A stretch of DNA of 64,000 nt from Vermamoeba vermiformis (taxonomy: Eukaryota), in NCBI GenBank assembly GCA_045837725.1, contig JBEWZL010000069.1:1-64000 (forward strand). Reading direction: 5' to 3'. The notes beneath the pieces are model-generated. The model was given only the letters and a program-made list of their open reading frames with translations. It was not told the origin of the DNA and ran no database searches. Positions 25,354 to 56,000 of this stretch are shown here, one piece after another (the first letter of the stretch is position 1; the number at the start of each line of letters is the position of its first letter). Made by a program: the position numbers and the translations under genes.

Positions 25354-27448
25354 ATGGCAGGAATACCTACTCTTAGAACCGATGAAGCTATAAAGCGCTA
25401 TTGATGACGGAACGAGATTTAGAATTGGTGCAGAAGTGGAGCATTTGGAATTATCGACAGGTACCCTAATTACCAATTTATTTTTGGTTAAAAATACTAC
25501 TAATAGGAATTAATAGGAACAATAACCTGCCGTGCGTATGTTGAAGAAGCTTTAAGTAATAACACCTCCATCACCAGCTTGAAAATAAAGCACGCTTGGC
25601 ACACTGATCCGCAAAAAGTAGTGCCGCTTTTAGCTAGTGTGCAACACTCCAAAATTTTGCAAGAGCTTACCATAGTCAGTGAAAAAGACGAGATTTATGA
25701 CGCGCTAGGTGCTCTGCTAAAAGAGAATACTTCTATTAAGTCGCTCTCTATTACTGGTAAGTGGTGTAGTTTGAGAATTATAGACATTAATATTTTTCAG
25801 GTTTAGGCTACATGAAGAAATCGGAAGAATTTACCGCAGGTTTGGCAAGCAATTCGTCCTTGAAACTACTCGAGTTGCTTCCTTTTGCAAACCATAGCAT
25901 CGTAATGATAAACGAAAATTTTCGAAGAATTATCGCTGCGTTGCGGTTAAATCCAACAATTAAAAATTTATCAATCAAAAGTAAGTCACTCGTAACTATT
26001 CCTCTTGTTAATTCGTGAATAGGTGGCTCGGGAGAAGCTCGCTTCAGCATAACGCCCGACAGCACCCTGTCAGGTATGAACGCGCGAGTAGTATTATGTT
26101 TACTAACCCAAGTATCAGTTGCTCAGGCTCAGCGCGTATGCATCAGCATTGAACGAGAGGCACCCGCAGAAGAATTTCTCTTGTCTAGTAGTCCCGACTG
26201 GGAGGCGATGGCCAAGTTCTTGAAAGAGACCTGTCCTGCACGTATTACCGAAGGCCAGATCTACCCGCAAGATTGCAATTTGAGCAACAAGACTTTCGCG
26301 GACCAACTCGCCGTCCACTCAATTAGTCGACTGCTCAACGAAACGAAAGAGGAGACTAGTGCACTGGCATCCTCGCTCGCCGAAAAGAAGAAGAAATCCG
26401 AGTCTCTTGCTGCCAAACTGGACGAAGTACGAAGACAGCTTCTGGCATTGGAAACAGAACTGGGCCAAGTCAACGAGGAGATCAAATCGGAATCACACTC
26501 TTTAGCGGCAAAGAACTCTGCAGTGAACAACCTTCAAGCGAACTTGACCAGATTTCAAGCCTCGCTGAAGTCAAACGAACCAGCGTTAAAGAGATGGCAG
26601 CAGAAGTTGCAAACCGACCTCAGCACATGGAGTATTGAAGATGTGTCGCTCTTATTGGCAGAAGTTGGTTTGAACAGCTACGCACCAGTCTTTGCAACCA
26701 ACAATATTGATGGCTCAGCACTCGCGTGTCTTGACACCAATGATTTGATGACTCTTCGCCTGTCATTTGAAGACACCAAGAAGCTGCAAATGTACGTTCA
26801 CTTGGTTCAAACCCATCGCGATATCTACACGATACCTCCAGGAGTGCTGCAATGGAACAACGACACCGTGTGCACGTGGCTCGAAGACAACAAGTTTGGT
26901 CACTTGGTCGATGTCTTCAAGAAGAACCATGTACGTTAAATATTATTGTCGGTATAAGACCGATGTTAACATTGTGTTTCGTGTAGGTTACTGGTGTTGA
27001 ACTTGCATTCTTGGAGAAAGCGGATCTGACCAATCATTTGAAGATCGCTACTCTCGGCGACGTCGTTAAGCTTCAAAAAGAAAGCTCTAAGCTCAGAGAT
27101 TCGCTACGCAATGAACAAATCTTGGAACTGAAGGACAACAATAACGATCAACTAGCTCGTCAACTTGACGAAATGAAACGATTCAACGAAGAGCTCAAAT
27201 TAACTCTCAAACAACGTGAGACGAAGATACCCGAAGCGTTCATCTGTCCAATCACACAAGACATGATGCAAGAGCCAGTGGTCGCGAGTGACGGTCACAC
27301 GTACGAGAGAACAGCAATCGAACTGTGGCTGAAGAACAACAATACTTCTCCCATGACTGGTCTTCAATTGTCAAACAAACAACTCACTCCTTCGCACACT
27401 TTGAAGAGTATGATCCGCGAGTTCATTGACGCGAACAAGAAAAAATGA
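25354..27448 (+). CDS. LRR(RNI-like)-coiled coil-SAM-SAM-U-box E3 ligase, array copy A (apparent frameshift in exon 1)
   Basis: LRR-like ENTSIKSLSI; SAM motifs WSIEDVSLLL..VGL..Y..F..NNIDG and WNNDTVCTWL; U-box [35 protein letters not shown]. Exon 1 needs a frameshift near 25395 to match the paralogues. Confidence 0.8.
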
Positions 27449-27831
27449 AGTTTACAATACGAAAGGCCTCACCAATATTTGTTCAACAATAAACTGTAAT
27501 TCATGACGCTTAAAAAAATGAGGTGCCGATATTAATTGGCCAACCAAATCGAGACGTTCTTTCTTGTGGATTGCGTTGTCACGGAAGAGTTTTCTGTCAA
27601 ACAAGTTTCGGCGCCGCGCTAACGCAGTCAAATTCTGTAGATAGAGCAACCACGAGGCGATTTTGGAAAATACTCGAAAAGGTGTTCGCAGATCGCAAGT
27701 AGCTATTTCGCCCAAAATCAGCTCCTACCCAGCTTTGTAAATAATTACACCTTTTAATACAATAATATTTATTACTACAATTACGGCGAGAGAAGAATCA
27801 ATTCAATTTAAATCGTCAGTCAGTCTCGAAG

Positions 27832-30588
27832 ATGGCAATCCGTAATCCAGCAGCTGCGACTCCTCACGAGGCGCAATCAAATGCAGCCAAAAAATATTGC
27901 TTTGTTGAACAAAGCATGGTATGTATTATTTCTAAATATTTAATTGAAAAGGTAGATTCGAGCGATCTCCTCTCCTGGACACATTTGCAAATTGATACAA
28001 TATTAATTATTACAATTATATTTATTGATTATTTCAAATATATTTACATTACCATATTAATTATTATCCAAATTGCAGACACATCCCAAATTTTTGCACA
28101 GTAATTCAACAAGTCACATTTGGGCCTTCGGAGCAATAGCCGAACTCGTGGGTGCGTACTACTGAATATTACTATAGTTACGTAGCTAAAACATTGCACA
28201 GATAATGCGACAGATCCGGATGTTATGGCAACCAGATTTTGGATCGATGTCGAAGAAGAAAAAAACGGCCAACCTCGATTATGCTTCACCGATAATGGCT
28301 ACGGCATGGAAATCGATAAATTATACAAAATGCTGAGTTTTGGATATTGTGAGAAGGTACGTGACTGACTGACACGTATGGTGACTGACACGCGCGAATC
28401 CACTGCTTTTCGAATTTCAATTCCAAAGCTCTGTCTGGGGTTAAATTTACTTTATTATTAAAAACATGTCTAATTTCATAACCGTCAATGCAGGAAGAAG
28501 TCAATGGACATAAACCGATCGGTCACTACGGCAATGGATTCAAATCCGGTTCAATGCGTTTAGGCCGAGATGTAATCGTTTTTTCGAAATCAAAAAGTAC
28601 TTATAGCATTGGCATGTTGTCTCAAACCTTTTTATTCGCTGAAAATGCAACTTCAGTCCTCATTCCGATGGTTACGTGGGATGCGACTGGAAGTAAGTCC
28701 AATTAGAACACTGTTGCTACTTAAAAGTTGCTTACCGTTATATTTAGAGTGTCTTACAGAGCTTCAAGCTGCTGAGCAAAGTCTAGGTGCTATTCAAACC
28801 TACTCACCGTTCAAAACGATCCACGACATGATGAACAGATTCAAAAGAATACCTAATGGTACCAAGAGAGGCACTGGTACTCATATCGTTGTATATAATT
28901 TGCGAACAGTTGGTAAAGGTACGTATAATTAACTGGATCAACGTCAACAATAGCTAAAAATTTCAACAGAGCGGGATGCGCCATACGAGCTCGATTTTGA
29001 AACAGACCCATGTGATATTAGGATAGCCAATGTATTGGTAAGCGTTAAGGTCTTGGATATGCACCATATAATATGAATTCAGAGTCCTAAAGGCAAAAAG
29101 CTGCATTTCCAACAGCACCAAAATGGCCAGGGCACGCAGGTTAAAAGTCCGATTGATTTCTCGCTGCGAGTAAGTCTAGCAGTCCTATCTGCTTCTTTTG
29201 CAGCTAATGACACTATCTGCTATTAGGAATACTGTTCTATATTATATTCAAAGCCGAGAATAATTATCGTCTTGCGACGCACAAAGGTTCAACCAAAATT
29301 TGTAGATGCTTCACTTGCCAACCGTATGTTTGATGTTTATGTAAGTAACGGCTTTAATCTAAGCATATGAGCTTATATTTATTTCGCTACAAGACACTCC
29401 TTGGCACATTTCATTAATTTTTTTTGTATTGTAGAAAAACACGAGGATTACATTCGGCATGAACGTGGATAATCCTAATTTGTATGGCATCATGCTCTAC
29501 CACAGAAATCGCCTCATCAAACCATACTTGCGCGTCGGAATTCAAAATCAGATCAATCCAGATGCAGTTGGCGTCATTGGTATTATCGAGGCAGACTTCT
29601 TGCAACCGACGCATAATAAGCAAGACTTCGATATAAATACAAGAGTGTACAAGAACTGCATCCAGACACTCGCCACCAAGCTTGAGGCTTATTGGGAGTC
29701 ATACAAAAACAAATCTAGGTGGCAGCAAAAGCTACGCACTGACTTAGCTGACTGGAGCTCGGAAGACGTCCAGTTCTTGCTCTCTGAGATTGGACTCAAA
29801 GCGTACACCTCCGCTTTTGCAAGCCACAAGATTGACGGCGCCTTACTTTCAGCACTCGACACTTGTGATCTTACGTCAGCGAACCTCAAATTAACTTTTA
29901 AAGAAGCCAAACGTGTATTAATGTATGTCTATCTGGTTCAAGCACATCACGACATCTACACGATACCTCCGGGAGTGCTGCAATGGAACAACGACACCGT
30001 GTGCACGTGGCTGAAGGACAACAAGTTTGGTCACTTGGTCGATGTCTTTAGGAAACATCAGGTAAGTGAAATTTATTTAGACCACCAGTGCGATTGACTT
30101 GAGGTAAATAGATAACAGGAGCCGAGCTTGCTTTCTTGGAGAAAGTGGATCTAAACAATCACTTAAAAATTCAAGCTCTGGGCGACATCATTAAGCTGCA
30201 AAAAGAGATTTCGATACTTAAGAATTCGCTATCGAATGACCGTAGCTTGCAAAATCAACGCCAGAAAACCAATAACGTAAACAATGACTACGTTGCACGT
30301 CAACTCGAAGAGATGAAGCGATTCAACGAAGAGCTCAAACTGACTCTCAAACAACGTGAAACCAAAATACCTGAAGCGTTCATCTGCCCGATCATGCAAG
30401 ACATGATGCAAGAGCCAGTGGTCGCGAGTGACGGTCACACGTACGAGAGAACAGCAATCGAACTGTGGCTAAAGAGCGGCAACAGCTCTCCCGTGACAGG
30501 TCTTCAATTACCTAACAAACAACTCACACCTTCGCACACCTTGAAGAGTATGATCCGTGAGTTCATCGATGCCAAAAAGAAAAAGTAA
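27832..30588 (+). CDS. MORC GHKL-S5 ATPase fused to SAM-SAM-coiled coil-U-box
   Basis: MORC motifs as in the 1..1824 copy. Within one exon (ORF 29459..30097), [10 protein letters not shown]...LEAYW runs straight into WQQKLRTDLADWSSEDV (SAM). The last exon encodes the U-box. Confidence 0.87.
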
Positions 30589-30809: not shown

Positions 30810-32955
30810 ATGGAAGCAATACCCACTCTTGGCACCGAGGCGGATATCAAAAACGCTATTACCCATGGCAAGCGTTTTAAAATTGCCTCATCAGTGAAGA
30901 GAATTGAGCTTTGGACAGGTAAATAAAATTTGAATAAAGGTTTTGATTAACCCTTAATTGCGGTAGAACAAATATTGAATCACTATTGCGTTGCGGATGC
31001 GCTGCAAGAAAACAATTCAATCACAGCAGTAAAACTAAACCACTCGTGGCAAACTCTTCCTACTAAATCGGCGCCTATTCTTGAAAGCTTACATGCATCA
31101 AAAGTCCTTCAAGAACTGGAAGTTGAGAGCAACAATGAGCGATTTTTTTCTTCTGTGGGAAATCTCTTAATGGAGAACTCGTCTCTTAAGTCCCTCTCGA
31201 TCATTGGTAAGTACTGTTTCGCTCTAGTAAATATGCTTATTTCAATTTGATAGGCTTCGGTTGCATGAACTCAGATCAGTTTTACAAGGGGCTGGAGGAT
31301 AATTCAAGCTTGGCTACGCTTGACGTAAGAACGTCAAGCTTGGCTACGCTTGACGTAAGAACGTTTGATAACTACAATCAGAGAGAAAAGATACACGACG
31401 ATTTCAAAAGAATTGTCGCTGCACTGCGGAAAAATCCTACCGTGTTGCGATTTGAAATTAGACGTGAGTTGAATTACTAATCATCTAATATTTAATCACT
31501 CTGATAATCCCTCTTTAGAGAATAATCCTAAATCCAAAAGTCTTGGATCCGTCGTATCTCCACACGCCGTTGTGACTGGTATGCAACTTAATACTTTCGA
31601 CTGCTGCTAACGGTTTCCAGACGATCTAGTGCACCTGTCCTTTCTAATCGAAAGAAGGTCCACAGACCAACTCGATGAACTCATTAGTAACTGCAATTGG
31701 GAACAGCTGGCCCAGTTTCTAAGAAGCAACTGCCAGACCGTACTCGTGAAAAAATTTTACTCTGAAGGACACAACTTGAGCACTAAAACCTTCGTAGATA
31801 AGCTGGCAATTCATGCGTTGCAGAAAATGGTAGAAGATGCGACCAACGAAAAGAACAAAATTCAATCCGAGACCGAGGAGAAACGCAAGCAGTTTTCGGC
31901 GCTAACCAAGAAACGCGACGAACTCCGAAAACAGCTGGATGGAGTCGAAGCAGATCTCATCAAAGTCGACTCGCAGATTCAGTCGAATAGCACGTTGCTA
32001 TCCGAGAAGAGCGCTGCCCAGCTGTTCCTTCGCGAAAATATGCAGGGCTTTGAAAATGCACTGAAGAAGAACGAGCCGGCTCTCAAGAAATGGCAGCAAA
32101 AGCTTCAAACGGACATTGGCACGTGGTCCTGTGAGGACGTGTCATTTTTGCTCACGGAGATTGGCCTTGGGAAATACTCGCAAGTCTTTGTGGCGAACAA
32201 AATTGATGGAACAGTGCTAAAAGCGCTCGAAACGAACGACTTGATATCGACTCTCGAAGTGTCTTTCAAAGAGGCCAAGAAACTTCTTATGTACGTGCAT
32301 CTAGTTCAAACCCAACACGACATATACGCAATACCTCCGGGAGTGCTACAATGGAACAACGACACCGTGTGCACGTGGCTGAAGGACAACAAGTTTGGTC
32401 ATCTCGTTGAAATATTCGTGAATCATCAGGTAGCGTTTGACATGTTAATACTACTCCTGTTAACCATACGCACAGATCTGTGGTGCGGAATTTGTCTTCC
32501 TAGAGAAGACAGAACTGACACGTCATTTGAAAATCCAAGCGCTTGGTGATGTTATTAAACTCCATTTGGAGATAGCGAAACTAAAGGACTCGCTAAAAGA
32601 CGAACACGGACTACAAGCACAACTTAAGACTGGCAACAGCAATGCAAGCAACAAGCAATTGGAGCGTCAACTCGAAGAGATGAAACGATTCAACGAAGAG
32701 CTGAAAAGCGCACTAAAGGAGAAGAAAACGAAGATACCTGAAGCGTTCATCTGCCCGATCACTCAGGACATGATGCAAGAGCCAGTGGTCGCGAGTGACG
32801 GTCACACGTACGAGAGAACAGCAATCGAACTGTGGTTGAAGAACAACAATACTTCTCCCATGACTGGCCTTCAATTGTCAAACAAACAGCTCACTCCTTC
32901 GCACACTTTGAAGAGTATGATCCGTGAGTTCATTGACGCTAACAAGAAAAAATAA
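30810..32955 (+). CDS. LRR-coiled coil-SAM-SAM-U-box E3 ligase, array copy B
   Basis: Starts MEAIPTLGTEADIK; LRR-like exons; same SAM and U-box motifs as copy A. Confidence 0.85.
31304..31363 (+). repeat. Perfect 2 x 30-bp in-frame tandem duplication (SSLATLDVRT x2) in the LRR region
   Basis: tcaagcttggctacgcttgacgtaagaacg occurs twice in tandem. Confidence 0.95.
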
Positions 32956-33124: not shown

Positions 33125-35224
33125 ATGATTAACACAAAAAACGACGTTGCAAGCCCAAGGAAGAAACGCAAAATAGGATCGGATGTAAAAAGTGTGGAAA
33201 TTGACCCGGGTAATTATTAATCATAATTATTTTGGCAAAAGAATTATTAATATTCGAAATTAATCAGGACCCCGCACTAATTTTCTCTACCTGGAAGAGG
33301 CTCTGCAAAATAATAAGTCACTGACGGATGTGACGATTCTCGCTGGCGGCGGCAGGAAATTCCAAACCGAATCTCTTGCTTTAATCCATTCACTTAATCA
33401 ATCAAAAACCCTTATTAGTCTTACTGTTGAATTTGGAGACCACCTCATTCTTACACCTCCGATCAGCACTTTTCTGCGACAAAACTCGTCAATTAAAACC
33501 CTAAATCTCGATGGTACTATCGCAAATATTTCTTTATAATTTCTAATATTATAAATTAGGTGTAATTGTACCCTCTTACGCAACACAACTTTTGGATGGG
33601 CTGGCTGCAAATTCTAGCTTGACCGAACTGACCCTGAATATAACCAGTGCCTACGGTCAATTCGAGTTTGAGAAGAAACTCAAGGAAGCACTTCTGAATC
33701 ACGGGAATATAACAAAATTTACTAAACGGGGTAAGAATTTCTGATCTCGGTCGATCTGTTTCTGATGAATGTTTCGCAGGGCACCAAAATGATAATTCAA
33801 TAGGTAGGTACAACTTAGACTAAACAATTATAATACCAACGTATTCTTAGTGACGCATACGGAGTTTTCCATTGAGCGAACGCTGTTCAAAGACAATCAG
33901 TTATGCACCATCGAAAATTTTATAAAGAGCAGCAATTGGGAAGAGCTGGCGAAATATTTGCAACAACATTGTGGCGAACACGTGATTCCAGAAATTTATC
34001 CGAGCGACCTTAGTTTAAGCACCAAAACATTCATCGATAACCTTGCCATTCATTCACTGAAAGGTTTGTTCCAAGAATCGCAGAAACGAGGCGCTACATT
34101 GCAAGGGCAGCTCGATGCCAATAATAGGACCATTGCTGGATTAAATAAGGAACGAAATGAATTACAACGAAAACTTAACGAGGTCGAATCAAGGATGAGA
34201 GCCGTAAACACAAATATACAAAAACAATCACGAGAATTGACTGACAGTACTCGTGTTCAAGAAAATCTTGCAACGAATATCCGTAATTTTCAAGCGTCGC
34301 TAAAGAAAAATGAACCAGCACTCAAAAAGTGGCAAAAACGCTTCAAACTGACTTTGCTACTTGGTCCAAGGACGATATAACGTTATTACTGAAAGAGACA
34401 GGCCTTGCACGATACTGTGGCTCCTTCCTGTCAAACAACATTGACGGCACGGTACTTCTGCAGCTCGAAACAAATGACCTGATCTCCGCTCTTGAGGTCT
34501 CATTCAAAGACGCCAAGAAGCTCTTGATGTATATACATTTGATCCAAACCCATCGCGATATCTACACGATACCTCCGGGAGTGCTGCAATGGAATAGCGA
34601 CACCGTGTGCACGTGGCTCGAAGACAACAAGTTTGGTCACTTGGTCGATGTCTTCAAGAAGAACAAGGTATGCGAAATACATTTAGGTCCCGAGCACGTG
34701 CTAATATAAAGGTATGATAGATCACAGGAGCAGATCTTGCGTTCTTGGAGAAAGCGGATCTGATCGGTCAACTACGGATCAAAAAAATTGGTGACGTAAT
34801 CAAACTTCAAAAAGAGATTTTGAGGCTAAAAGAATCAATACTAGACGACCGAAAGTTGCCAAATCAAAACATAGTCAACAATAATAACAACGTGGCTAAT
34901 AGTCAACTCGAACACCAACTGGAGGAGATGAAACGATTCAACAAGGAGCTGAAAATTGCACTTAAAGAGAAGAAAACGAAGATTCCTGAAGCGTTCATTT
35001 GCCCGATCACACAAGATATCATGAACGACCCTGTCTTCGCGAGTGACGGTCACACGTACGAGAGAACAGCAATCGAACTGTGGCTGAAGAACAACAATAC
35101 TTCTCCCATGACTGGTCTTCAATTGTCAAACAAGCAACTCACACCGTCACACACTTTGAAGAGTATGATCCGCGAGTTCATTGACGCGAATAAAAAAAAT
35201 GAATTATTACACTACCAAATGTAA
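33125..35224 (+). CDS. LRR-coiled coil-SAM-SAM-U-box E3 ligase, array copy C (two 1-nt losses in A-runs)
   Basis: Same architecture as copies A and B. Frameshifts near 34335 (caaaaa) and 35195 (A8) relative to the paralogues could be sequencing errors. Confidence 0.8.
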
Positions 35225-39504: not shown

Positions 39505-42500
39505 ATGACATTCCAAGGCTTTCAATGGGGCTCTAACAGTAAGTTAAGCACTATTAATAGAATGACCTAACAATGGTAGATATGAATGACCTATGCACTA
39601 TTGAGACAGTTGGCTTCGTTCTTCGGCTAGTGCTGCAAAAATTGCCAGGACACAAGTTTGAGAGTGACTTTTTTAAACTATTGACGGGTTGGATTAATAA
39701 TGGACCACTATCCAATGAAAGGCTACACCAATTAAAATTGGATCTGATAGATGCCCTTGGTCCTGTTGTAGGCTGGGTGCCTTGCAAGACTTATGTCTCA
39801 ATTGGTGCAATACTCACGGCAGCTTTCAAAACTCTGTCAATTGCCGAATCAGCATTATTTGTCTCTACTCTTAAAGTTGTTAGCCACTGCAAATGTCCTA
39901 CAACAACAAAGCTATTTCATCAAGTGGCAGTTTTTGTTGAAGAAAAACTGACTGACAGTACACTCTCACTCCAAGCTGCACTCAACCACTTAGCAGACTA
40001 CAACTGCCAGCTACCCATCAACTGCTATGATTGTGGAATACAACCTGTTGAACATCGTAAGTTCAATTAGAAGAAATGAATTTGATATTAAACTGTGTAG
40101 GTACATTGGAGTTGCCACAAGTTTTGACTGTCGAGTTAGGAAGACTCAAAAGGCAATTTAGCAACCCAAATATAACCATCGAGCCAGTTTTAACTGTCAA
40201 CAATTGTCAGTATTACCTATTAGCTGTAATGATGTGCCCCACACTACATGCTATTTTGTGCAACAGTCAGTCTTGTATTTCTATGATGGCATGCAAAATG
40301 AAGGAATTGCCACTCCAGTGGCAGAAACACTTGAAACAAGCAAATCTAAGATATATTATGACCACATTGTGTACTTAAAACGACAGGTAATTTAACCTGG
40401 TTTAGTTCTTCTAAGCATTAACTCTTGGTAGAATTCTGCACCTGTTTCGAAAGCCATCAATGCAAAAGACCTATTTACTACCTTGCAAGTGCAGCCAGAA
40501 AGTACCCCAATTGCCTCGCAGAATCTGTTCCAAGTCCTAACAAAGAATATCATTCCATCTGAAAAACTCAAGTCATTAAAAAAACAAAAGTTACTTGGGG
40601 CTGATTCAATTAACAAAGGTACTTATAACTTGCAAATTTTACATCTAACTAACATTTTCCAGTTGCAGCTACAAACTGTTGTAAGGCTAGATGTACTGAA
40701 CTCTTCACTACCAGCCAGATTCTGGAAAGCCGCAAGATGGTGGCTGAGCTCAATGACAGTCAGAAAACTAAGTGGCTGATGAAATTTTTTGAAACAAACA
40801 TGAACATTGATAGCCCAGCTGTTGCTTTCCTGGTAGGAGGTGTATCAGTTTGTCAGCTTGCATTTTGCAGAGTTTATGGAGTGTCTGTCGACAAGGTTAT
40901 TCAATGCAAGCAACAATACCTAAATGGAACAAAGGCTCATATGCATGGTAATTGCTTTCGGGTGTATGACTCCCCAAAGAGAGACTCAGTAGCCGCTTGG
41001 ATCCAAAACTATTGCAATACATATGGTGATTATGTGCCAACTAAAGATGAAATTCACTTACCATCACACATGACGTAAGTTCTTGTTCTGATACTGTGAT
41101 TGCTAACCAATGCAAGTGTGAAGGAATGGTACAATCTGTTTTCTGGTGAATTTGCCAATCTTCACCCAGGAGCTGACACACCAAGCTATGAAACTTTCAA
41201 GCAGGTCAAGCGCAAATGGTTTGCAGTAAGTTACTATGTGCATCTTTCAATTTTGCTAAAGATTTTAGAATGTTAAACGCCCGAAGGAGACTCGACTTGG
41301 CAAATGTTCAACCTGTTTATTGATTAAACAACGGCGACTACAGTGCCCTTCAGAAGATAAGCTGTTGCAATTGAAACAGCAGATGAATGAACACATAGAT
41401 TATATTACAAAGGACAGACAGATGTATCGGCAAAGAGCAGATATTGCCATTAAGCAACCCTTCTTGAAGATGAGCATCATTACAGACAAAAGTGGCAGTT
41501 TTCAACTTCCTCAGCACCATCCAATGCCAAAAGAATGGGCGAATATTAACCTTTTGCAAGCAAGCTTTGTAGGCTTCATTAACCACGGGCTGAACAAGAA
41601 AGAGTTAGTGTTTTTCAAGGAGTCTGATTACATTGCAGATGCAGACTTTTACATCTCACTCCTGTTCCATCATTTGAAAGAATCTTTGCTATCAATTCAA
41701 CCACAAAATAGACCGACAACACTGTATTTACAAGTAGATAACAGTGCAGCTGAAGGCAAAAATCAATATTTGCTTCAATTTGCAGCATTACTAGTGCACA
41801 ATGAGTGGTTTGAAGAGGTTTTCATTCATTATTTACAACCTGGCCACACACATGAAGATATTGACCGACTATTTCAACCATTTCATACTTACTTCCAATG
41901 GAAAGTTATTGAAACTATGAATGATGCTATTACATTTGCAAAGTCAATCTATCCCAAGGATGTGTATATTCATGAACTCCAATGGCCCATTCTTTCCTGG
42001 AAAAAGTGGTTTCTCACATTCTGCTCATCAATGAGTGGTCACAAAGACAAATATGCTTTTTGGCTAAAGAAAGGACTTGATGGCACTCCAACACTCCTGT
42101 TCAAACAAAAATCTCTCGATGAAAATTGGATTGAAGTTGAAGAATCAGTGTTTAGTCATTCTCCGTCAGCCGAACCTGTAGCACTTCAACCAAACCCTGT
42201 GTCCAAGGAGTTGATAGCCACAATAGTGACAAAGACCTCTAAATTTCTTTCTGAAAAGGTGAGGATTGTACTTTACTATTCAGTTACTAACATGTTGCAG
42301 GGCATCGAATATTACAAAGGTCTGGAGAGAACAGAAGAGGTGAAAGTTATGACAGAATTGTTCCAGATTGGCCAAGTTAAACGTGAAGGACCAGAGCTTG
42401 TGGTCTCATCAGAAAAAGAACCAACAATGGTCAATTTAAAGAAGCGCAAACGGCAGGTTGAAGGTACCTTCAAATCATAGGTTTATTCTTAATTGTTACT

Positions 42501-42697
42501 CATTTTTGTTTGCAGATGAGGCAGAATGGGTAGTTAAAAGTATTATAGACCACCGAAAAGTTGGACGTAAGTTAGAGTGGCTGGTACTTTGGGACGGAGG
42601 ACAACAGTCCTGGGAGCCACGTAATTGCTTCATAGATGCAGACCAAAGCAAGAATGAAGTATGGGCTGACTATGAAAAGAAGAGATTGAGCAAATGA
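39505..42697 (+). CDS. USP-like cysteine peptidase - Sola-type transposase - chromodomain fusion (one frameshift near 40230)
   Basis: USP-like boxes: GFQWGSNNMNDLCTIE, CYDC..LELPQVLTVELGR, YYLLAV, PHTTCYF..FYDG. Transposase: CCKARC, VCQLAFCRVYGVS, HGN, IHLP, KCSTC, LYLQVDNSAAEGKN, GHTHEDIDRLF. Spliced (42464..42515) to a chromodomain EWVVKSIIDHRKVGRKLEWLVLWDG..SWEP. Confidence 0.75.
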
Positions 42698-42750: not shown

Positions 42751-45649
42751 TGTGGCCGTCAGAAGGTTTCAAGTTTAGTAAATAATTTAGATAATTTTTA
42801 ATGAATATAACATAGGCAACAACGAATATTTCATCGAAGCCCTACGAGGAAATACTTCACTGCGGGTTATAAAATTCAATCGCTCTTTCTTTACAAAACC
42901 GCAATCAATAGCGTCATTAATTACCGCACTAAAAACATCCAATACATTAGAAGATTTGACGATAGAAAACAGTGCAAAAGAAATTTACGAGGCAGTGGTG
43001 CAGCTTTTGAAAGAGAACACATCCATCAAAACTCTTACTTTAACGGGTACGCCTCTTCGTTGGAAATTATGTAATATAACGGATCCTTGTAGTTGATAGT
43101 GCGGTCGTGGGAATTTTAGCTAGCGGACTAACGGAAAATCGAACCCTGATCCACATCAATCTGCTCGCAAGCTTTGGCTTGGCAGAACTACCACATGTTT
43201 CGAAACATTCAAGCCTATAGTCGAAGCGTTACAAAATTCCCCTACAGTTAAAAAAGTTTTAATTCGAAGTAAGAAACTCTACAACCTAAGCGTAAAAAAG
43301 TAACCCACGTTGCTAGGACAAAACGAAGAACCATATCGCGAAATTTATCCGAACGAATGCATCACATGTACGTAGTCAATGACTTATTAGACACTCTCGT
43401 AACATTTCTTCAGTGGAACGGGCCACAAAGCTGTCAATCTTGATCGAAAGGAAAGGACAAAGCCCCGCACAGTTAATTGCAAATAAGAAATGGGACGAGC
43501 TTGCTTCGTACATCAAAGACCATAGCACGGAATATCTAGCCTTTAACTTGCACTACTCTTGCCAGGTCGATTTAAGCACCAAGACGTTTATCGACTCCTT
43601 AGCTATTCAGTCTTTGCAGCCGTTGTTGGAAGAAATGCGGACGAAAAACAACGAGGCTGAAGTCGCTTTAGACGTCACAAAAATTGAGTGTCAATCGCTG
43701 ACCGAACAACGAGACAAATTACGAAAGCAGCTTGCTGACGTTGAAATCAAACTGGCAAAAGTCACCGCACAAGTCAAATCAGACGCAAAAGACTTGGAAG
43801 ATCGTAAATGAGCTGAACAAGATTTACAAATCAATCTGCAGGTGTTTCAAGCTTCACTAAGGACGAACGAACCCGCGCTTCAGAAATGGCAGAAAAAACT
43901 TCAAGTAGATATTGCTGAATGGAGCTGCGAGGACGTGTTATTCATGCTAACTGACATTGGACTGCAAAAATATTCAACTTCATTTTCGGCGAACAAAATT
44001 GACGGCGCAGTGCTTTTGACACTTGACGCGAGCGATTTGACAGCCACTCTGGAGCTATCTTTCAAAGACGCTAAGAAGCTCCAAATGTACATTTACTTGG
44101 TTCAAACTCATCACGACATCTACACGATACCTCCGGGAGTGCTGCAATGGAACAACGACACCGTGTGCACGTGGCTCGAAGACAACAAGTTTGGTCACTT
44201 GGTCGATGTTTTTAGGAAGCATCAGGCAAGTTACTATAGCTGTTGTAGATTCTACTCGGTCCTAACTCTATGTTTGTTAGATAACTGGCGCTGAACTAGC
44301 ATTTTTGGAAAAGTTGGATCTGACACACCACCTTCAAGTCAAAGCACTTGGTGACGTCGTAAAATTGCAGAAAGAGATTGCAATACTTAAAGACTCCCTG
44401 TCTGATACACAAGCTTTAGTTAGGGCCAATACGAACAACAACAAACAATCCGCCAAAGTCAATGACAAACCAGCACAAGATGAACATAAACATGAAGATC
44501 ACAAGGAACAATTTGCACCAGTACCGGAGTTCAAGGGCTTTGACTCAGTGCTTTCGTTTGGGTTTAGTCCCAGCCGACAAGGAGCCGGCCCTTCTTTTGC
44601 CAGCACCTCTTTGTTTTTTCCTGCCCCAAGTAACAATGATGCGACTAAACTCGGTCAACAAGAGAAAACTTCTACACCAGTTGCATCGCCGGTCCAATTC
44701 GGATTCAGTTTCGCTCCTATTGCAAACCCATTCGGAGCAAGTTTTGGTACTCAAAATTCCGTTGCAAATCCTTTGCCACAACTGCAACCGAAGCAGATCT
44801 CGCAAGGAAACTCAGTTGCATCGTCTGTCCAATTCGGATTTAGCTTCGCTCCTGTTGCAAATTCGCCATTTGGATCTAGTTTTGGTACTCAAAGTCACGT
44901 TGTGAATTCTGCTACTCAACCACAGCCAAAGCAGCTCTCCGTAGACAACTCGGAAGTAAAGATACGACACTTCTCGGTGCCTGAAACTGACCATGACGAA
45001 GAAAGCGATAGAGACGCCAATAAGCAAGTGAAATCGACTCCGCCTCCTTTGCCCTTGTTAGGAGAACCTGCACAAAACAACGAGAAAGAGCCAACGGTTG
45101 CCGATCGAACAACGCAATCGAATGCAAACGAAGAAGAAACTGAAGAAGCAGCCATATGTCCCATCACCCATGACGTGATGAAGGATCCAGTGGTCGCGAG
45201 TGACGGTCACACGTACGAGAGAACAGCAATCGAACTGTGGCTGAAGAACAACAATACTTCTCCCATGACTGGTCTTCAATTGTCAAACAAACAACTGACG
45301 CCAGCACAGAAGTTGGATCCGAACAAGAAAAAATAAGAGTTGCGTTTCTTTAGAAATATGAGCACCAATAAACCTTTTTTTTGTTGTCTTCGTTGACACG
45401 ATTCAAGGAAATTCATTGTTTCTGTGGTTGACGGATGCACTTGTTACGAGACTCGATTGAACCAAATTTTTCGTTCGCGTCTCTACTTTAGAAAAAGCTT
45501 CCGACATCGTTAAATAGTTATTTTGCAAGCTATATTTGTTAAAGCGTGCAAACTCCGTTGTGAACTCAGCCCAGATTTTCCGCGTGTCACTTTTTGTCTT
45601 TTGACTTTCTTGCCGTTGTATTACATAGTTATTACGTCACAGCTCAACC

Positions 45650-51136: not shown

Positions 51137-52865
51137 TTACTTGCTCTGACTTTTCAATGCCAGCAAGGACTTCTTCAACTGATCCACGTGACCAGGTTTA
51201 TCGACGCCGCAAACAGTAAGCATTTTGTTGAACTCCGCTTCGTCATCCATAAGCTCGATCAGGTAGTCCAGATCGTCGTATCCGGACTGTTCAAAGGCTT
51301 TGGCGTACTTTTTCAATCCCGCGAACTTGAACTTGGCGAAGATCGATGCAGTGCTGCTACTGCTCATGGATTGGTTGTCGAATGGCTCTTCTTTGCTCTC
51401 GCTGCTCAGAACCAGTTGTAACGGCTTAGTCTCGACGACCACGCTGGCCTTGCTGTCCGCTTCTTCTTCTTCTTCACTGATTTGCAAGGATGTAGTGTTG
51501 ATGGTCATACCGGCGTCCTCTTCGCAGCTGATCTGAATCGAGGCAGTAGACTGATTCAGCTCTCGTTTGATGACCTTCGTCAGATCCACTTTCAATCTCT
51601 TAGCTTGATTAGAGTAAACCTCACTGTCCTCTTCTTCTTCGCTAGATCGCTTTCTCTTTCTCTCGTTGGTATTGTTGTCGTTGTTGTTGTTGTTACGGAT
51701 TGATGTGCTTTCTGCAAGCAGATCGGGATCCACGCTGAACCTGCACAAGCTTTATTAGCGCTTGACAGAGGAGAATATATTGGCTACTTACAAAGACATG
51801 TCCTCATCGGCAGGTATGGGCTCGTCCTCTTCAATAGCGTCCATATCAAGTTCATCCTCTTCGGGTTCATTTTGCTCCTCAGCTTGAACATCATCATCGT
51901 CGTCGAAATTGTCAACAGCACCAAGCGCATCTTCCCAGCTCTGAATGCACGGCTTGAAATTGTCTCTGAGTGTGATCAGGTCATTACCAATGATCTTGTG
52001 CACGTGATCAAGAGCTTGCTCGAACGTCATTTTAAACAGCGCTATCGCGAAACCTAGGACAATTGCCAAGGCTCTGTATGTGGATTAGAATAGCCCTCAA
52101 TGTTTACTTAGGGTATATATATTACCTGGTTCCTGTTTTGTCGAAGACAAGTACGGATTTGTTCGTCTCGTAACAAGATCTGAGAAAATTGAGAGCTTGC
52201 AGCAACGTTTCAAGCTCGATGAAATCAACCTCCTTGATGGGCACGTGGTGGCACTCGTACTCATTTTCATAGTGATTTTTTGTGTCGTCGCCAACGTTAA
52301 GAACGGCTTGTACGTCGATATCTAAAAATTGTTTGGTTAAGGCTGGGATAAGTGGCTCGTCACTTACGTTTTGTGCAGAGGTCTATCTCGGTCTTGCGTA
52401 CACCAAGGATAACCCCACGGAATATCTCAAAGCCGCGAGATTCAAGTTGCGCCTGTCGTTCTTTGAGCGAATGCTTTGCATTGAGACTTTTCTGCAAAGC
52501 TTCGCGGGCAGCTTGCCTTTTCTTTCGAATACTAAATATCGTTAAATTAGTGTCAAGTAATTTGTTGGAAGGTATTATTTAATAACTGCATAATTTTTTG
52601 TGAATTCTGAGTATTGATTGACAGATTCGAAAAAAATCATTGGATTAATTTACTTGTTCATTTAAAAATATGCTACTTACGCCTCTTTCTCTTCCTCGGT
52701 CTTAGGATTTACCACGCGGCCGCTCTTTTTTGGAGAAGCTCTGATCTTCGTCGGACTTTCAAAAGGTTCCTGCTTGGCTCTCAAGCCTCGGGTATCTCGA
52801 TGCTCAAAGTCGGCCCTGCTCCAATACTTGCCGTCAAGTAATGTTTTTAATTCTTCTGAGCTCAT
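51137..52865 (-). CDS. Dual-specificity-phosphatase-like (probably inactive) protein with a C-terminal SAM domain
   Basis: VQAVLNVG, HHVPIKE, VLVFDKTGTRALAIV, MTFEQALDHV; SAM-like GLKKYAKAFEQSGYDDLDYL...GVDKPGH. Confidence 0.65.
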
Positions 52866-53010: not shown

Positions 53011-56000
53011 TTATATGCTGATTTGTTTCGTGGATCGTCGAGTCTTTGGTGGAGCAGCTGTGCTTGCTTGCGTAGGAGGAGATTGTTGAAAAGCGACCTT
53101 AAATACCTCATCATAATGAGATACGTAATGAACTTCAAGGTCCCTCTTAATATAGTCGGGCAACTCTTCAAAATCTTTCTTGTTGTTGGTAGGGAAGATC
53201 AAGGTGGTTACACCGGATCTCTTAGCAGCAATTGTCTTTTCCTTAACACCACCTAAATAGCATATTAGAATTTCTTCATAAACTGGCTGCGACTAAGTGT
53301 GTTCAGGCGAAATCTAGATCGCGTGATCCGCGCACTTATGATGTCTTACCAATAGGCAGGACTTTGCCAGTGATAGTGACTTCACCAGTCATAGCGAGAT
53401 CCTTCTTGACTGGTTTGTTAAGAGCCAAAGAGAGCAATGAAGTGACCATTGTAATGCCTGCAGAAGGTCCATCTTTAGGTGTCGCGCCAGCAGGAATGTG
53501 CATGTGCATTGAGGCCTAGATACGTCATATTAGCTCGAGTACGGTGTTGATGGTAAGATCTACTTACTGTTTCGAAGAAGCGGTTGGCAGGATTGTGTCG
53601 CAGCAAGTGAGCCTTGGCGTAAGTGTACGCGATCTCGGAGCTTTCTTTCATGACTTCACCCATCTTGCCTGTCCTTCGCAAACCAGGCTTGCTGCCGAAC
53701 TTATCTACACTCGATTCGACGTATAAAGTAGCGCCACCCATCTCGGTCCAGGCCAAACCCATGACAACACCAAGAGGTGTCTCTTCGAAGAATCTGTCTG
53801 TGCTGAAGGCAGGCTTGCCGACGTACTTCTGTAAGTTTTCTTTGGTGATAACCACGTGATCAGTTTCGCCTTGAACGATCTGCAAAGCGACTTTACGGAA
53901 TATCTTTTCAATCTTTTGTTGAAGGTTTCTAACACCAGCTTCACGGCAATAAGATTGGATCAATTCTTGGGCTGCCATTGGAGTGACAGTGACTTGTTCG
54001 GGCTTCAAACCAGTCTCTTTCAACGTGGTAGGAATCAAGTACCTACAGTAATTAATTAGTACGGCTTATTACGAGAAGCGAGTGATGTCAACTTACTTGT
54101 TCAAAATCTCCATCTTTTCTTCGAGCACGTAGCCGCTCAAACGAATTACCTCCATACGGTCAAGCAATGGTCCAGGAATCGTGTCTTGAAGATTGGCCGT
54201 GCAAATGAAGAGCACCTTTGACAGGTCATAAGGAACGTCCATGTAGTGGTCCAAGAAACCAGAGTTTTGTTCCGGATCCAACACTTCAAGCAAAGCTGAT
54301 GAAGGGTCTCCTCGCCAGTGCTTGGTCATCTTATCAATCTCGTCGATCAGAATGACAGGATTTGATGTTTGAGTGCGCTTGAGGGCTTGAATGATCTTGC
54401 CGGGCATAGCTCCAACATAGGTACGACGATGACCCTTGATTTCAGCCACGTCGTTCATTCCACCGACAGAGAAGCGATAGAACTCACGACCTAAGCTGCG
54501 TGCAATTGACTTGCCAATGCTGGTCTTACCAACGCCAGGCGGGCCGACCAATAAAATGATCTTGCCTTGCACTGAGTTCTTCATAGCACCGACTGCGATG
54601 AACTGCAAGATCTTCTCCTTGACATGTTGCAAGCCATAGTGATCTTCATCGAGGATCGTTTCGGCCTTCAACAAGTCAAACGACTCTTGAGAGTACACGC
54701 CCCAAGGAATGTTCGTCAACCAATCCAAGTAGTTCTTGGTCACGTGGAACTCGACAGACGATTGTTCCAAATTGCTCAATTTGGTCTAAAAACCATACAT
54801 TAGTTTCAGTCATTTTAGCCAAGATTTAACCAACGTACCATTTCGTCATTGATGACAGTCATCGCGTGCTCGGGCACGGTGTACTTTGCAAGTCTTTCCT
54901 TGAACTTGGCAATAACTTTGCTCTTCTCATCGCCCTTAGCACCGAGTTCGCCCTTAATGACCTTGATTCGCTCGCTGGCCTGGAACTTTCTGTTTGTCTC
55001 GCTCAATTGGTGCTTGACTTTCCTGCACGCGAAAAAAATGTTAGCCTGTATACCTAGAAATAGTATCTAAAGCAAACGTACTCTGAGACTTCGTGGTCCG
55101 TATGAATCAGCTCGTATTTGAACTTGACGAATCTAAGCGCCAGCTCCAATCTCTCCTTCAAATTGTTGCACTCCAAAATTTCAATTAATTTATCGGCGTT
55201 CGAGGGGTGAGGCATAGCAGAGGCAATAACTTCAGGGATGATGAATGAAGTGTTTGCTGGTTCTTTGAACAAAGTTTCTCGGTCGGGAATGAACAACAAG
55301 CGAGACATACTATAATAAGCAAGTATAAGCATTATGCAATAATGAATGGATATGCGATTAAACTTACACTGCGCCCTCGCGTTTTAAGGTTTCCACGATC
55401 TTGTTGTACGTGAAAATCAACTCGAAACTGTAGGCCTTGATAGTCTCGTCAGCAGAGTCTACAGGATCGTCTTCGAAGGGCACAATGTTCACGTGCATCG
55501 TGGTGTCGTTAGGGTGACGCACGACGGAAGTGGCTTTAATGCGCGAATGGGACATGAACATCACTTGCGCGTATTTCTCGCCCAAGGTAATGTCCTTAAT
55601 CTCTGCTAATACTCCGACTTTGCGAATTTGATTTAACTGCGTTGGGTTCGCTGGACTATCTCTCGCCGTCATTAAGAACAATCCTACTTTAGTTCCGTCA
55701 CGCTTGATTTTTTTCAAGGCGTCCAAATGCATCACATCATAGCTCAACACTTTGATGCCTAATTTTACATAAAATTAGTTTATGATTTATAAATTGAGAT
55801 TTTTGTCCTTTGCATACCATTGGGATAAATAGGCACGTCCGATAAAGGCAATACGGCAACTTTTTTAGGCACTGTCACTGGTTTTTTGCCTGCGTATTGT
55901 CCCGATGTTTGAATTGTTTCTTCGGCTTCTTCAGCTTCAAGAACTTCATCATTGTTATTGTGCTTAGAATTTGCGATAAATCTACGGTCCTATATTAAAA

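Follow-up and report, generated by a model that had tools for sequence, protein, structure and literature searches.

MORC ATPases compact chromatin and silence transposons and viruses, and they are believed to exert their output mechanically or through partner proteins. In MORC3, the CW zinc finger keeps the ATPase from binding DNA until the finger engages histone H3, and DNA binding is in turn required for ATPase activity (PMC6614601). The same protein is described elsewhere as a target of viral factors that is 'guarded' in human cells (PMC12409349). Among E3 ubiquitin ligases (E3s), WDSUB1 combines WD40 repeats with a SAM domain and a U-box, and the accessible text of its describers also mentions a choanoflagellate gene with two SAM domains and a U-box but without WD40 (Marin 2010, PMC3087547). 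Here we report, in positions 1 to 64,000 of a contig of the amoeba Vermamoeba vermiformis (GenBank JBEWZL010000069.1, assembly GCA_045837725.1; hereinafter the window), a gene on the forward strand (27832-30588) in which a MORC ATPase module is joined to a tail of two SAM domains and a U-box. Our best overall explanation, which we hold with a probability of about 0.55, is that this is an intact, lineage-specific chimeric gene that arose by duplication of a neighboring MORC gene and fusion to a member of a local gene array; that its product acts as a DNA-responsive ubiquitin ligase is a more tentative suggestion.

Set against the closest described proteins, the fusion is a mosaic. With the CW-type MORC proteins (MORC3/MORC4-like; here represented by a second gene in the window, copy A, and by P0001, an 898-residue protein from a 3-kb contig that is presumably transcript-derived) it shares the N-terminus, the GHKL motifs, the S5 domain, and the positions of introns 1-8, but not their CW domain nor their C-terminal coiled-coil/low-complexity tail. 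With WDSUB1 it shares a SAM domain adjoining a C-terminal U-box, a likeness of layout, whereas the seven N-terminal WD40 repeats of WDSUB1 have the MORC ATPase as their counterpart; Pfam scans of the pieces of the fusion gene recovered no WD40 families. Its closest affinity on the C-terminal side is to the array family that surrounds it and to the relatives of that family (P0201 and P0200/P0331), with which it has in common the SAM-SAM-helix-U-box order and the position of the intron in the second SAM domain (SAM2), carrying the MORC module in place of their leucine-rich-repeat-like (LRR-like) repeats and helix of about 110 residues.

The gene model comprises 10 exons and about 685 codons in an open frame from the ATG at 27832 to the TAA at 30586-30588, with GT-AG at all nine introns (18 of 18 splice borders intact; Table 1). 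Relative to an initial model of 681 residues, the acceptor of exon 5 was shifted from 28760 to 28748, which adds four codons, on the homology of P0001 and copy A, which agree over this region; the donor of the same exon is ambiguous by two codons (28918 versus 28912). Searched as single exons, the protein returned HATPase_c_3 in exons 3 and 4 (cut-off 25 bits, below which the exon 3 piece falls, being a fragment), Morc6_S5 (PF17942) in exon 9 (29435-30061), which at 86.7 bits clears its cut-off of 26.2 and spans profile positions 57-139 of 139, SAM_1 (48 bits) and SAM_2 (44.5 bits) on two stretches further downstream in that exon, and the U-box (PF04564) in exon 10 (77 bits against a cut-off of 21.4, profile positions 1-72 of 73). 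The GHKL motifs of the Bergerat fold, namely the E/N box, DxGxG, and GxxGxG, and an adjoining Morc-type S5 domain are both present, and in an alignment with five relatives, motifs I-III and the S5 block THNKQDF are unchanged in the fusion. The U-box spans the E2-binding fold, and its closest sequence relatives in the PDB are those of PUB12, LubX, and CHIP (E 1e-14 to 1e-5). The exon-wise Pfam scan found no CW zinc finger after S5, the frame passing directly from S5 to SAM. The product is thus, as predicted from its domains, a member of the MORC family by its ATPase module, placed outside the CW subgroup, and a member of the U-box ligase family by its tail, with a WDSUB1-like layout.

The junction (LEAYWESYKNKS followed by RWQQKLRTDLADW) lies inside exon 9 at 29716/29717, in the one unbroken frame of a 627-nucleotide (nt) open exon: the text reads LEAYWESYKNK and then SRWQQKL, with no stop between, and the join is both in frame and at a domain border. 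An initial annotation, made from the sequence letters, had proposed exactly this, namely a full GHKL+S5 module ending in LEAYWESYKNK and running within the same exon into SAM-SAM-U-box, and both Pfam and the reading frame agree with it. It had also raised the worry of a misassembly, on which the records of a DNA sequencing run, X1, have a bearing: 95 of them fall on the window (62 at ≥99% and 33 at 95-99% identity), and X1 contig record 6 (260 nt, 29666-29925) spans the junction with 51 letters on one side and 209 on the other, at 4 differences from the window. The depth of this record (403) is similar to that of its neighbors (857 and 391), and loose ends are absent near 29716. Among the variant letters of X1 in the MORC half, 6 of 13 are identical to the corresponding letter of copy A, a pattern expected if the fusion has a second haplotype that is less derived. 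X1 possibly comes from the same sample as the assembly, and is accordingly read as supporting the junction and not as independent proof of it. No other copy in the window is identical to either half, so the junction does not represent a collapse of those copies.

The source of the MORC half lies at the start of the window. Self-comparison of the window yielded a single high-identity repeat, in which 27583-29680 (+) pairs with 2096-1 (-) in one blastn alignment (88.4% identity over 2135 columns) that takes in the introns and 249 nt of 5′ flank; this flank may carry the promoter of the parent MORC gene. Copy A, the gene at the other end of this alignment, has an intact frame of 401 codons and continues beyond the window. 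The two genes are 93.7% identical in exons and 86.9% in introns, and over about 400 residues the fusion protein shares 91% identity with copy A and 82% with P0001. Two metagenome loci of a related species (L001 and L002, about 72% nt identity) carry the same type of MORC gene, and in L002 the parent-type exon extends 12 codons beyond the breakpoint of the fusion, followed by an intron and then the CW exon; P0001 has the same order of S5 then CW. Judged from these sequences, the copied block ends 12 codons short of the end of the parent exon 9. As for neighboring features, copy A stands head-to-head with an SNF2-family gene (SNF2-rel_dom) that starts near 2325 (+), and the duplicated block takes in about half of the intergenic region shared by the two.

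The C-terminal half, in contrast to the MORC half, is that of an array gene. The fusion's SAM part shows 61-70% amino-acid identity to array members A, C, D, and E, and its last exon 70-77%, upholding the earlier view that SAM-SAM-U-box is common to the flanking genes. Among named organisms, the nearest relative of the array family is P0201 of Vermamoeba vermiformis (four LRR_6, two SAM, and a U-box; 46% identity), and further relatives, P0200 and P0331, come from metatranscriptomes; in a MAFFT alignment, exon 10 of the fusion is 44-64% identical to P0201 and P0200/P0331 and 71-80% to members A, C, and D. The intron within SAM2 sits at the same position in the fusion and in the array members, so that the fusion owes introns 1-8 to its MORC parent and intron 9 to the array. 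Array homology begins at (K/R)WQQKL (29717), upstream of which stands MORC, and the fusion has neither the N-terminal LRR-like repeats nor the long helix that characterize the array family. An AlphaFold model of P0331 has a helix of about 110 residues before the first SAM domain (SAM1), a confidently modeled SAM pair (predicted local distance difference test score, pLDDT, about 90), and an N-terminus below 50; the WQQKL start corresponds to the last turn of this type of helix. Synonymous divergence (dS) between the C-terminal half of the fusion and members A, C, D, and E is above 1, that is, saturated, and equal to their mutual distances; hence, this half is an old array member in its own right.

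The N-termini of the array genes, described in the initial annotation as LRRs, fit that description in part. A profile match of an array N-terminus to the LRR_6 region of a Vermamoeba relative (probability 59%, E 9e-5) argues for it, and a low-confidence model with beta-alpha repeats resembles the C-terminal half of tropomodulin. Against this, Pfam recovered no LRR family on 7 N-terminal exon pieces of the array, six of which had no family of any kind at E≤0.05, and a BLASTP comparison of one such piece with P0201 gave nothing meaningful; we therefore regard the LRR identity as moderately supported. A sub-threshold Herpes_PAP match on the piece at 30951-31247 (E 0.037) was set aside as unrelated.

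The position of the copied block within the array completes the picture. The block starts only about 135 nt after the stop of member A, from which it follows that the event removed the N-terminal exons that the recipient once had, and as both breakpoints fall within coding exons, intron-mediated shuffling was not the route. We propose that an inverted segmental duplication of about 250 nt of 5′ flank together with exons 1-9 of the adjacent CW-type MORC gene would have been fused, exon to exon and in frame, with an old member of the LRR-like/long-helix/SAM-SAM/U-box array, with deletion of that member's sensor-like N-terminus and stalk helix. That MORC had been placed where the N-terminus of an array member once stood was already part of the initial annotation; the homology at the junction and the dS comparison lead to the same reading. 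A real chimeric gene with this duplication-and-fusion origin is, in our assessment, very probable. Within 64 kb one can see the gene that was copied, the array that received it, the two breakpoints, and the later action of selection, which would make the locus a clean case of new-gene birth by exon-to-exon fusion as opposed to intron-mediated shuffling.

The age and subsequent history of the MORC half can be read from its comparison with copy A. The dS of 0.158 between the two marks the MORC half as young. The fusion groups as sister to copy A (support 97/98) in a tree that also includes P0001, L002, and two coral MORC3-like proteins; 14 informative sites favor this grouping versus 2 and 0 for the alternatives, which places the duplication after the split from the species of P0001. 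With substitutions polarized by L002 (17 sites ambiguous), the branch of the fusion has 26 non-synonymous and 15 synonymous changes, and that of copy A 6 and 9. The non-synonymous rate is about four-fold higher in the fusion (p=5e-4), the synonymous rate is not (p=0.31), and the ratio of the two (omega) is about 0.47 for the fusion versus 0.18 for copy A, the former being below 1 with a binomial p=0.019. Insertions and deletions (indels) follow the reading frame: the exons have undergone 2 events (6 and 3 nt), both in frame, whereas the introns have 11, not one of them divisible by three in length, and the 5′ flank has 5, giving 16 non-coding events in 927 nt; at the non-coding rate about 21 events would be expected in the exons (P about 2e-3 even if only one of the two lineages was constrained). 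The differences between the fusion and copy A also avoid conserved positions, falling in 7 of 162 invariant columns and 24 of 192 variable columns (Fisher p=0.008). Taken at the level of the sequence, these patterns indicate that the coding part of the MORC half has been kept by selection under a regime that has changed or loosened.

We recovered the combination of domains in no other protein. In a search with exon 9 of 5.8 billion clustered proteins, taken over the longer proteins, 49 of 793 candidates matched; all of them have Morc6_S5, most also have zf-CW, none has SAM or U-box, and none covers more than 54% of the query. An exhaustive HMMER search of 1.84 billion representatives gave 549 matches at E≤0.001, among the best 150 of which none matches both the MORC and the SAM halves; P0180 (2145 amino acids) has 8 stretches on the SAM half among the matches listed. 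P0055, matched over two stretches, proved to be a tandem MORC protein with CW. The corresponding exon 10 search of longer proteins returned 5 matches, none with MORC domains; metagenome contigs yielded 2 loci, both with the MORC half only; and an exact look-up of four translations of the exon 9/10 reading-frame type in a collection of 15 billion proteins found them absent. In a Pfam census of MORC-half representatives, comprising 118 of the 139 MORC-half matches among the best 150 (21 short MORC fragments and the 11 SAM-half matches were left out), zf-CW is present in 102 of 118, in keeping with the initial annotation's premise that CW is the usual follower of the MORC ATPase. Bromodomain, Tudor-like, SMP/C2, and FIIND-UPA-CARD occur in one representative each, and none of the 118 has a U-box, a RING-type family, or a SAM domain.

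The literature gives a concordant result. The accessible text of Iyer et al. 2008 (PMC2292703) lists SMC-hinge, HTH, BAM, and TAM/MBD as partners, and nowhere in that text are U-box, RING, or ubiquitin mentioned. The available portion of a 2026 preprint on Tiamat GHL ATPases likewise has no U-box. Among partially accessible papers pairing MORC or GHKL with U-box, no such fusion was found and the cases opened were unrelated, the one co-mention being of PUB12 as co-expressed with AtMORC7. The initial annotation knew of no described MORC-U-box fusion, and databases and literature alike returned none. Within the searches made, the predicted MORC-U-box fusion is thus undescribed, new as an architecture, and so far known from one lineage.

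As to function, the predicted protein keeps the whole GHKL+S5 module and is without the CW domain and the C-terminal coiled coil of MORC proteins. Given that CW autoinhibits MORC3, the CW-less module should escape that control as well as guidance by H3K4 methylation (H3K4me). In the mode of action that we envisage, the MORC module would bind DNA and close on ATP, as in MORC3/4, the absence of CW leaving this closure free of CW-mediated autoinhibition and H3K4me guidance; the SAM pair would keep several copies together; and the U-box would bring in an E2 ubiquitin-conjugating enzyme, leading to ubiquitination of proteins at the clamped DNA or of the fusion itself. That the gene makes a functional protein has, in our estimate, even odds or slightly better, and that it works specifically as a DNA/ATP-gated E3, close to the DNA- or chromatin-sensing ligase of the initial annotation, is a tentative suggestion that we consider possible but doubtful. 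If correct, a MORC-E3 fusion would be a direct test case for an enzymatic read-out of MORC clamp closure, and would connect MORC proteins with the order of sensor, oligomerization hub, and effector known from innate immune receptors.

Several observations weigh against this account of an intact, working chimeric gene. The protein branch of the fusion (0.093) is about 24 times longer than that of copy A (0.0039), and the fast change of the MORC half could reflect relaxed constraint. The long stalk helix of about 110 residues seen in the P0331 model is not kept in the fusion. The array contains at least one decaying member: member D has a one-base frame change at the WQ/K site (34314-34380), the same spot where the array homology of the fusion starts, and may be a pseudogene or contain a homopolymer error. 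The fusion is known from one assembly only, with the bridging run perhaps from the same sample. Finally, in three RNA-seq runs labeled as the same species, which represent two samples of one study and of which 46-48% each was examined, no reads at a 95% identity filter fell on 27400-30250 or on the junction. Partial reads were found at 30295-30338 (3, 4, and 3 per run), with ends foreign to the window, and the consensus of their loose ends has no match in the window at ≤3 mismatches; such reads therefore stem from a paralogue or a strain outside the window. Reads from exon 9 of the parent gene would pass the same filter (97 of 97 windows of 150 nt differ by ≤6 letters), and none was seen. As the parent gene too is without reads, the RNA negative is not specific to the fusion; the samples either express neither gene or stem from a diverged strain.

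The foremost competing explanation is that of a functionless young chimera, thrown up by a tandem array undergoing birth and death, hardly expressed, and drifting toward a pseudogene. Consistent with this are the zero RNA reads on the MORC half and junction in all three runs, the four-fold excess of non-synonymous change over the parent, the frame break already present in member D, a transposase-like DUF7869 open reading frame (ORF) within the array region, and the lack of an orthologue in any database searched. However, the frame of 685 codons and all 18 splice borders are intact; no exon indel breaks the frame, versus 16 indel events in non-coding sequence; omega is about 0.47 (p=0.019); and the changes spare conserved columns (p=0.008). 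The absence of RNA reads is equally true of the parent and has little weight. We accordingly judge a functionless chimera to be unlikely, though worth serious consideration, and prefer the intact chimeric gene.

A different view of the function takes the MORC module as a sensor or bait mounted on a SAM-U-box ligase, such that an attack on MORC, or foreign (giant-virus) DNA, would be converted into ubiquitin signaling; this is an argument by analogy that we consider improbable. In its stricter form, the module would be an integrated bait, a MORC mimic that traps a viral or parasite anti-MORC factor on an oligomerizing E3, with ubiquitin signaling or destruction of the attacker as the outcome. 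The MORC module does occupy the exact place of the sensor-like N-terminus of the array members, the MORC half is fast-changing yet constrained, and viruses are known to target MORC3, which is guarded in human cells (PMC12409349). Two likenesses add to this. First, the catfish (Clarias gariepinus) protein P0190 has HATPase_c_3 and Morc6_S5 without CW, as in the CW-less fusion, joined to a tail of the innate-immunity signaling type; that tail is FIIND-UPA-CARD rather than SAM-SAM-U-box, its origin is independent, and the protein is a database prediction (among the titles listed in a literature search, none dealt with a MORC-FIIND-CARD fusion). Second, SARM1 (ARM-SAM-SAM-TIR) shares with the fusion the order of sensor, tandem SAM hub, and effector, the last being TIR in SARM1 and U-box in the fusion. 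In a Foldseek search with the P0331 model, the solved structure closest to the array SAM pair was the SARM1 SAM1-2 hub (E about 1e-4), although the match is weak (template modeling score, TM, 0.36-0.43; root-mean-square deviation 10-11 Å); the pair also weakly resembles the SAM repeats of liprin and has a weak sequence match to Caenorhabditis elegans TIR-1 (E 0.002). Against the integrated bait stand the retention of every ATPase motif, which a pure bait would not need, the lack of any known pathogen or effector for the organism, the weakness of the SARM1 match, and the nature of the argument itself, its resemblance to integrated-bait immune receptors being one of layout only. This stricter form we likewise consider improbable. 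If the broader idea were true, it would, together with the catfish MORC-FIIND-CARD protein, make the MORC module a recurrent portable tripwire of eukaryotic innate immunity.

The remaining alternatives are very improbable. The locus might be transcribed without yielding a fusion protein, with an internal start, polyadenylation, or alternative splicing giving a truncated MORC or SAM-U-box alone; nothing direct speaks for this beyond the fact that the array half has its own intron and could be driven from within, while at the junction, which lies within an open 627-nt exon, there is no stop or evident use of a canonical donor. An artefact of assembly that misjoined a distinct MORC paralogue to an array gene at 29716/29717 would find an opening in the repeat-rich array region and in the possibility that the sole bridging reads are the assembly's own source, but is contradicted by the divergence of the halves from the other copies in the window, at 12% for copy A and a dS above 1 for the array members, by an in-frame join at a domain border, and by a variant haplotype contig that bridges at normal depth without loose ends.

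Table 1. Exons and flank of the MORC-SAM-SAM-U-box fusion gene, its parent, and the array members in the window
Feature	Coordinates	Strand	Evidence or remark
Parent MORC gene, copy A: 5′ flank and exons 1-9; leaves the window before the CW exon	1..2096	-	
Array member A (LRR-like, long helix, SAM-SAM, U-box)	25507..27448	+	
5′ flank copied with the MORC exons	27583..27831	+	blastn to 2096-1825 (-): 219 matches, 29 mismatches, 5 indel events
Exon 1, start codon	27832..27918	+	N-terminus agrees with P0001
Exon 2, GHKL motif I (AIAELVDNA)	28079..28151	+	98.6% identity to copy A
Exon 3, GHKL motif II (DNGYGM)	28202..28356	+	HATPase_c_3, E 1.3e-4, 22.4 bits
Exon 4, GHKL motif III	28494..28692	+	HATPase_c_3, 26.1 bits
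Exon 5	28748..28918	+	Acceptor by homology
Exon 6	28970..29037	+	GT-AG model, alignment to copy A
Exon 7	29083..29169	+	GT-AG model, alignment to copy A
Exon 8, first half of S5 domain	29227..29340	+	Alignment with P0001 and copy A
Exon 9, MORC part: remainder of S5 to last helix (LEAYWESYKNKS)	29435..29716	+	Morc6_S5; L002 homology ends at 29715
Exon 9, array part: RWQQKLRT (last ~8 residues of long helix), SAM1, first half of SAM2	29717..30061	+	SAM_1/SAM_2
Exon 10: remainder of SAM2, helical linker, U-box, stop	30112..30588	+	U-box, 77 bits
Array member C	30951..32955	+	
Array member D, one-base frame break at WQ/K site	33264..35224	+	
Array member E, long low-complexity insert upstream of U-box	42791..45336	+	

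The array itself shows several further features. Between its SAM2 and U-box, member E carries an FG/S/P-rich insert about 230 residues long, and the same type of insert is seen in P0202 (NCBI); member E also contains an internal direct repeat (44678-44801 and 44813-44939) and an altered C-terminal end. The U-box ends of the array members (27233-27390, 32740-32897, 34988-35151, and 45145-45302) are unusually alike, those of A, C, and D being 87-92% identical to E at the nt level, versus about 70% for other parts of the genes, and those of A and C being 95.6% identical without a single amino-acid change. This similarity suggests gene conversion among the array members; the U-box of the fusion is less homogenized (88%). 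Just upstream of member E, the stretch 41269-42694 (+) contains the DUF7869 ORF of the transposase-like type (E 8e-39), followed by a short ORF that appears chromodomain-like by eye and has no Pfam match; a mobile element may thus be present inside the array region.

Other genes in the window include, upstream of the array, a trypsin-like peptidase at 11271-12162 (-) (Trypsin_2, E 4e-15), a subtilase at 14978-16197 (+) (Peptidase_S8, E 2e-12), and a 546-codon open exon of LRR-like repeats at 16682-18322 (+) with weak matches to LRR_6 and F-box-like families (E 0.02-0.03). An ORF rich in N and E at 51137-51751 (-) contains a SAM-like domain (SAM_NCD1, E 3.5e-4) unrelated to those of the array. 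Further along, 53475-55774 (-) codes for a mitochondrial-type Lon protease that is 97% identical to the metatranscriptome protein P0208, its matches from named species (chytrids, zoopagomycetes, oomycetes, Thecamonas, and others) being at 56-75% identity.

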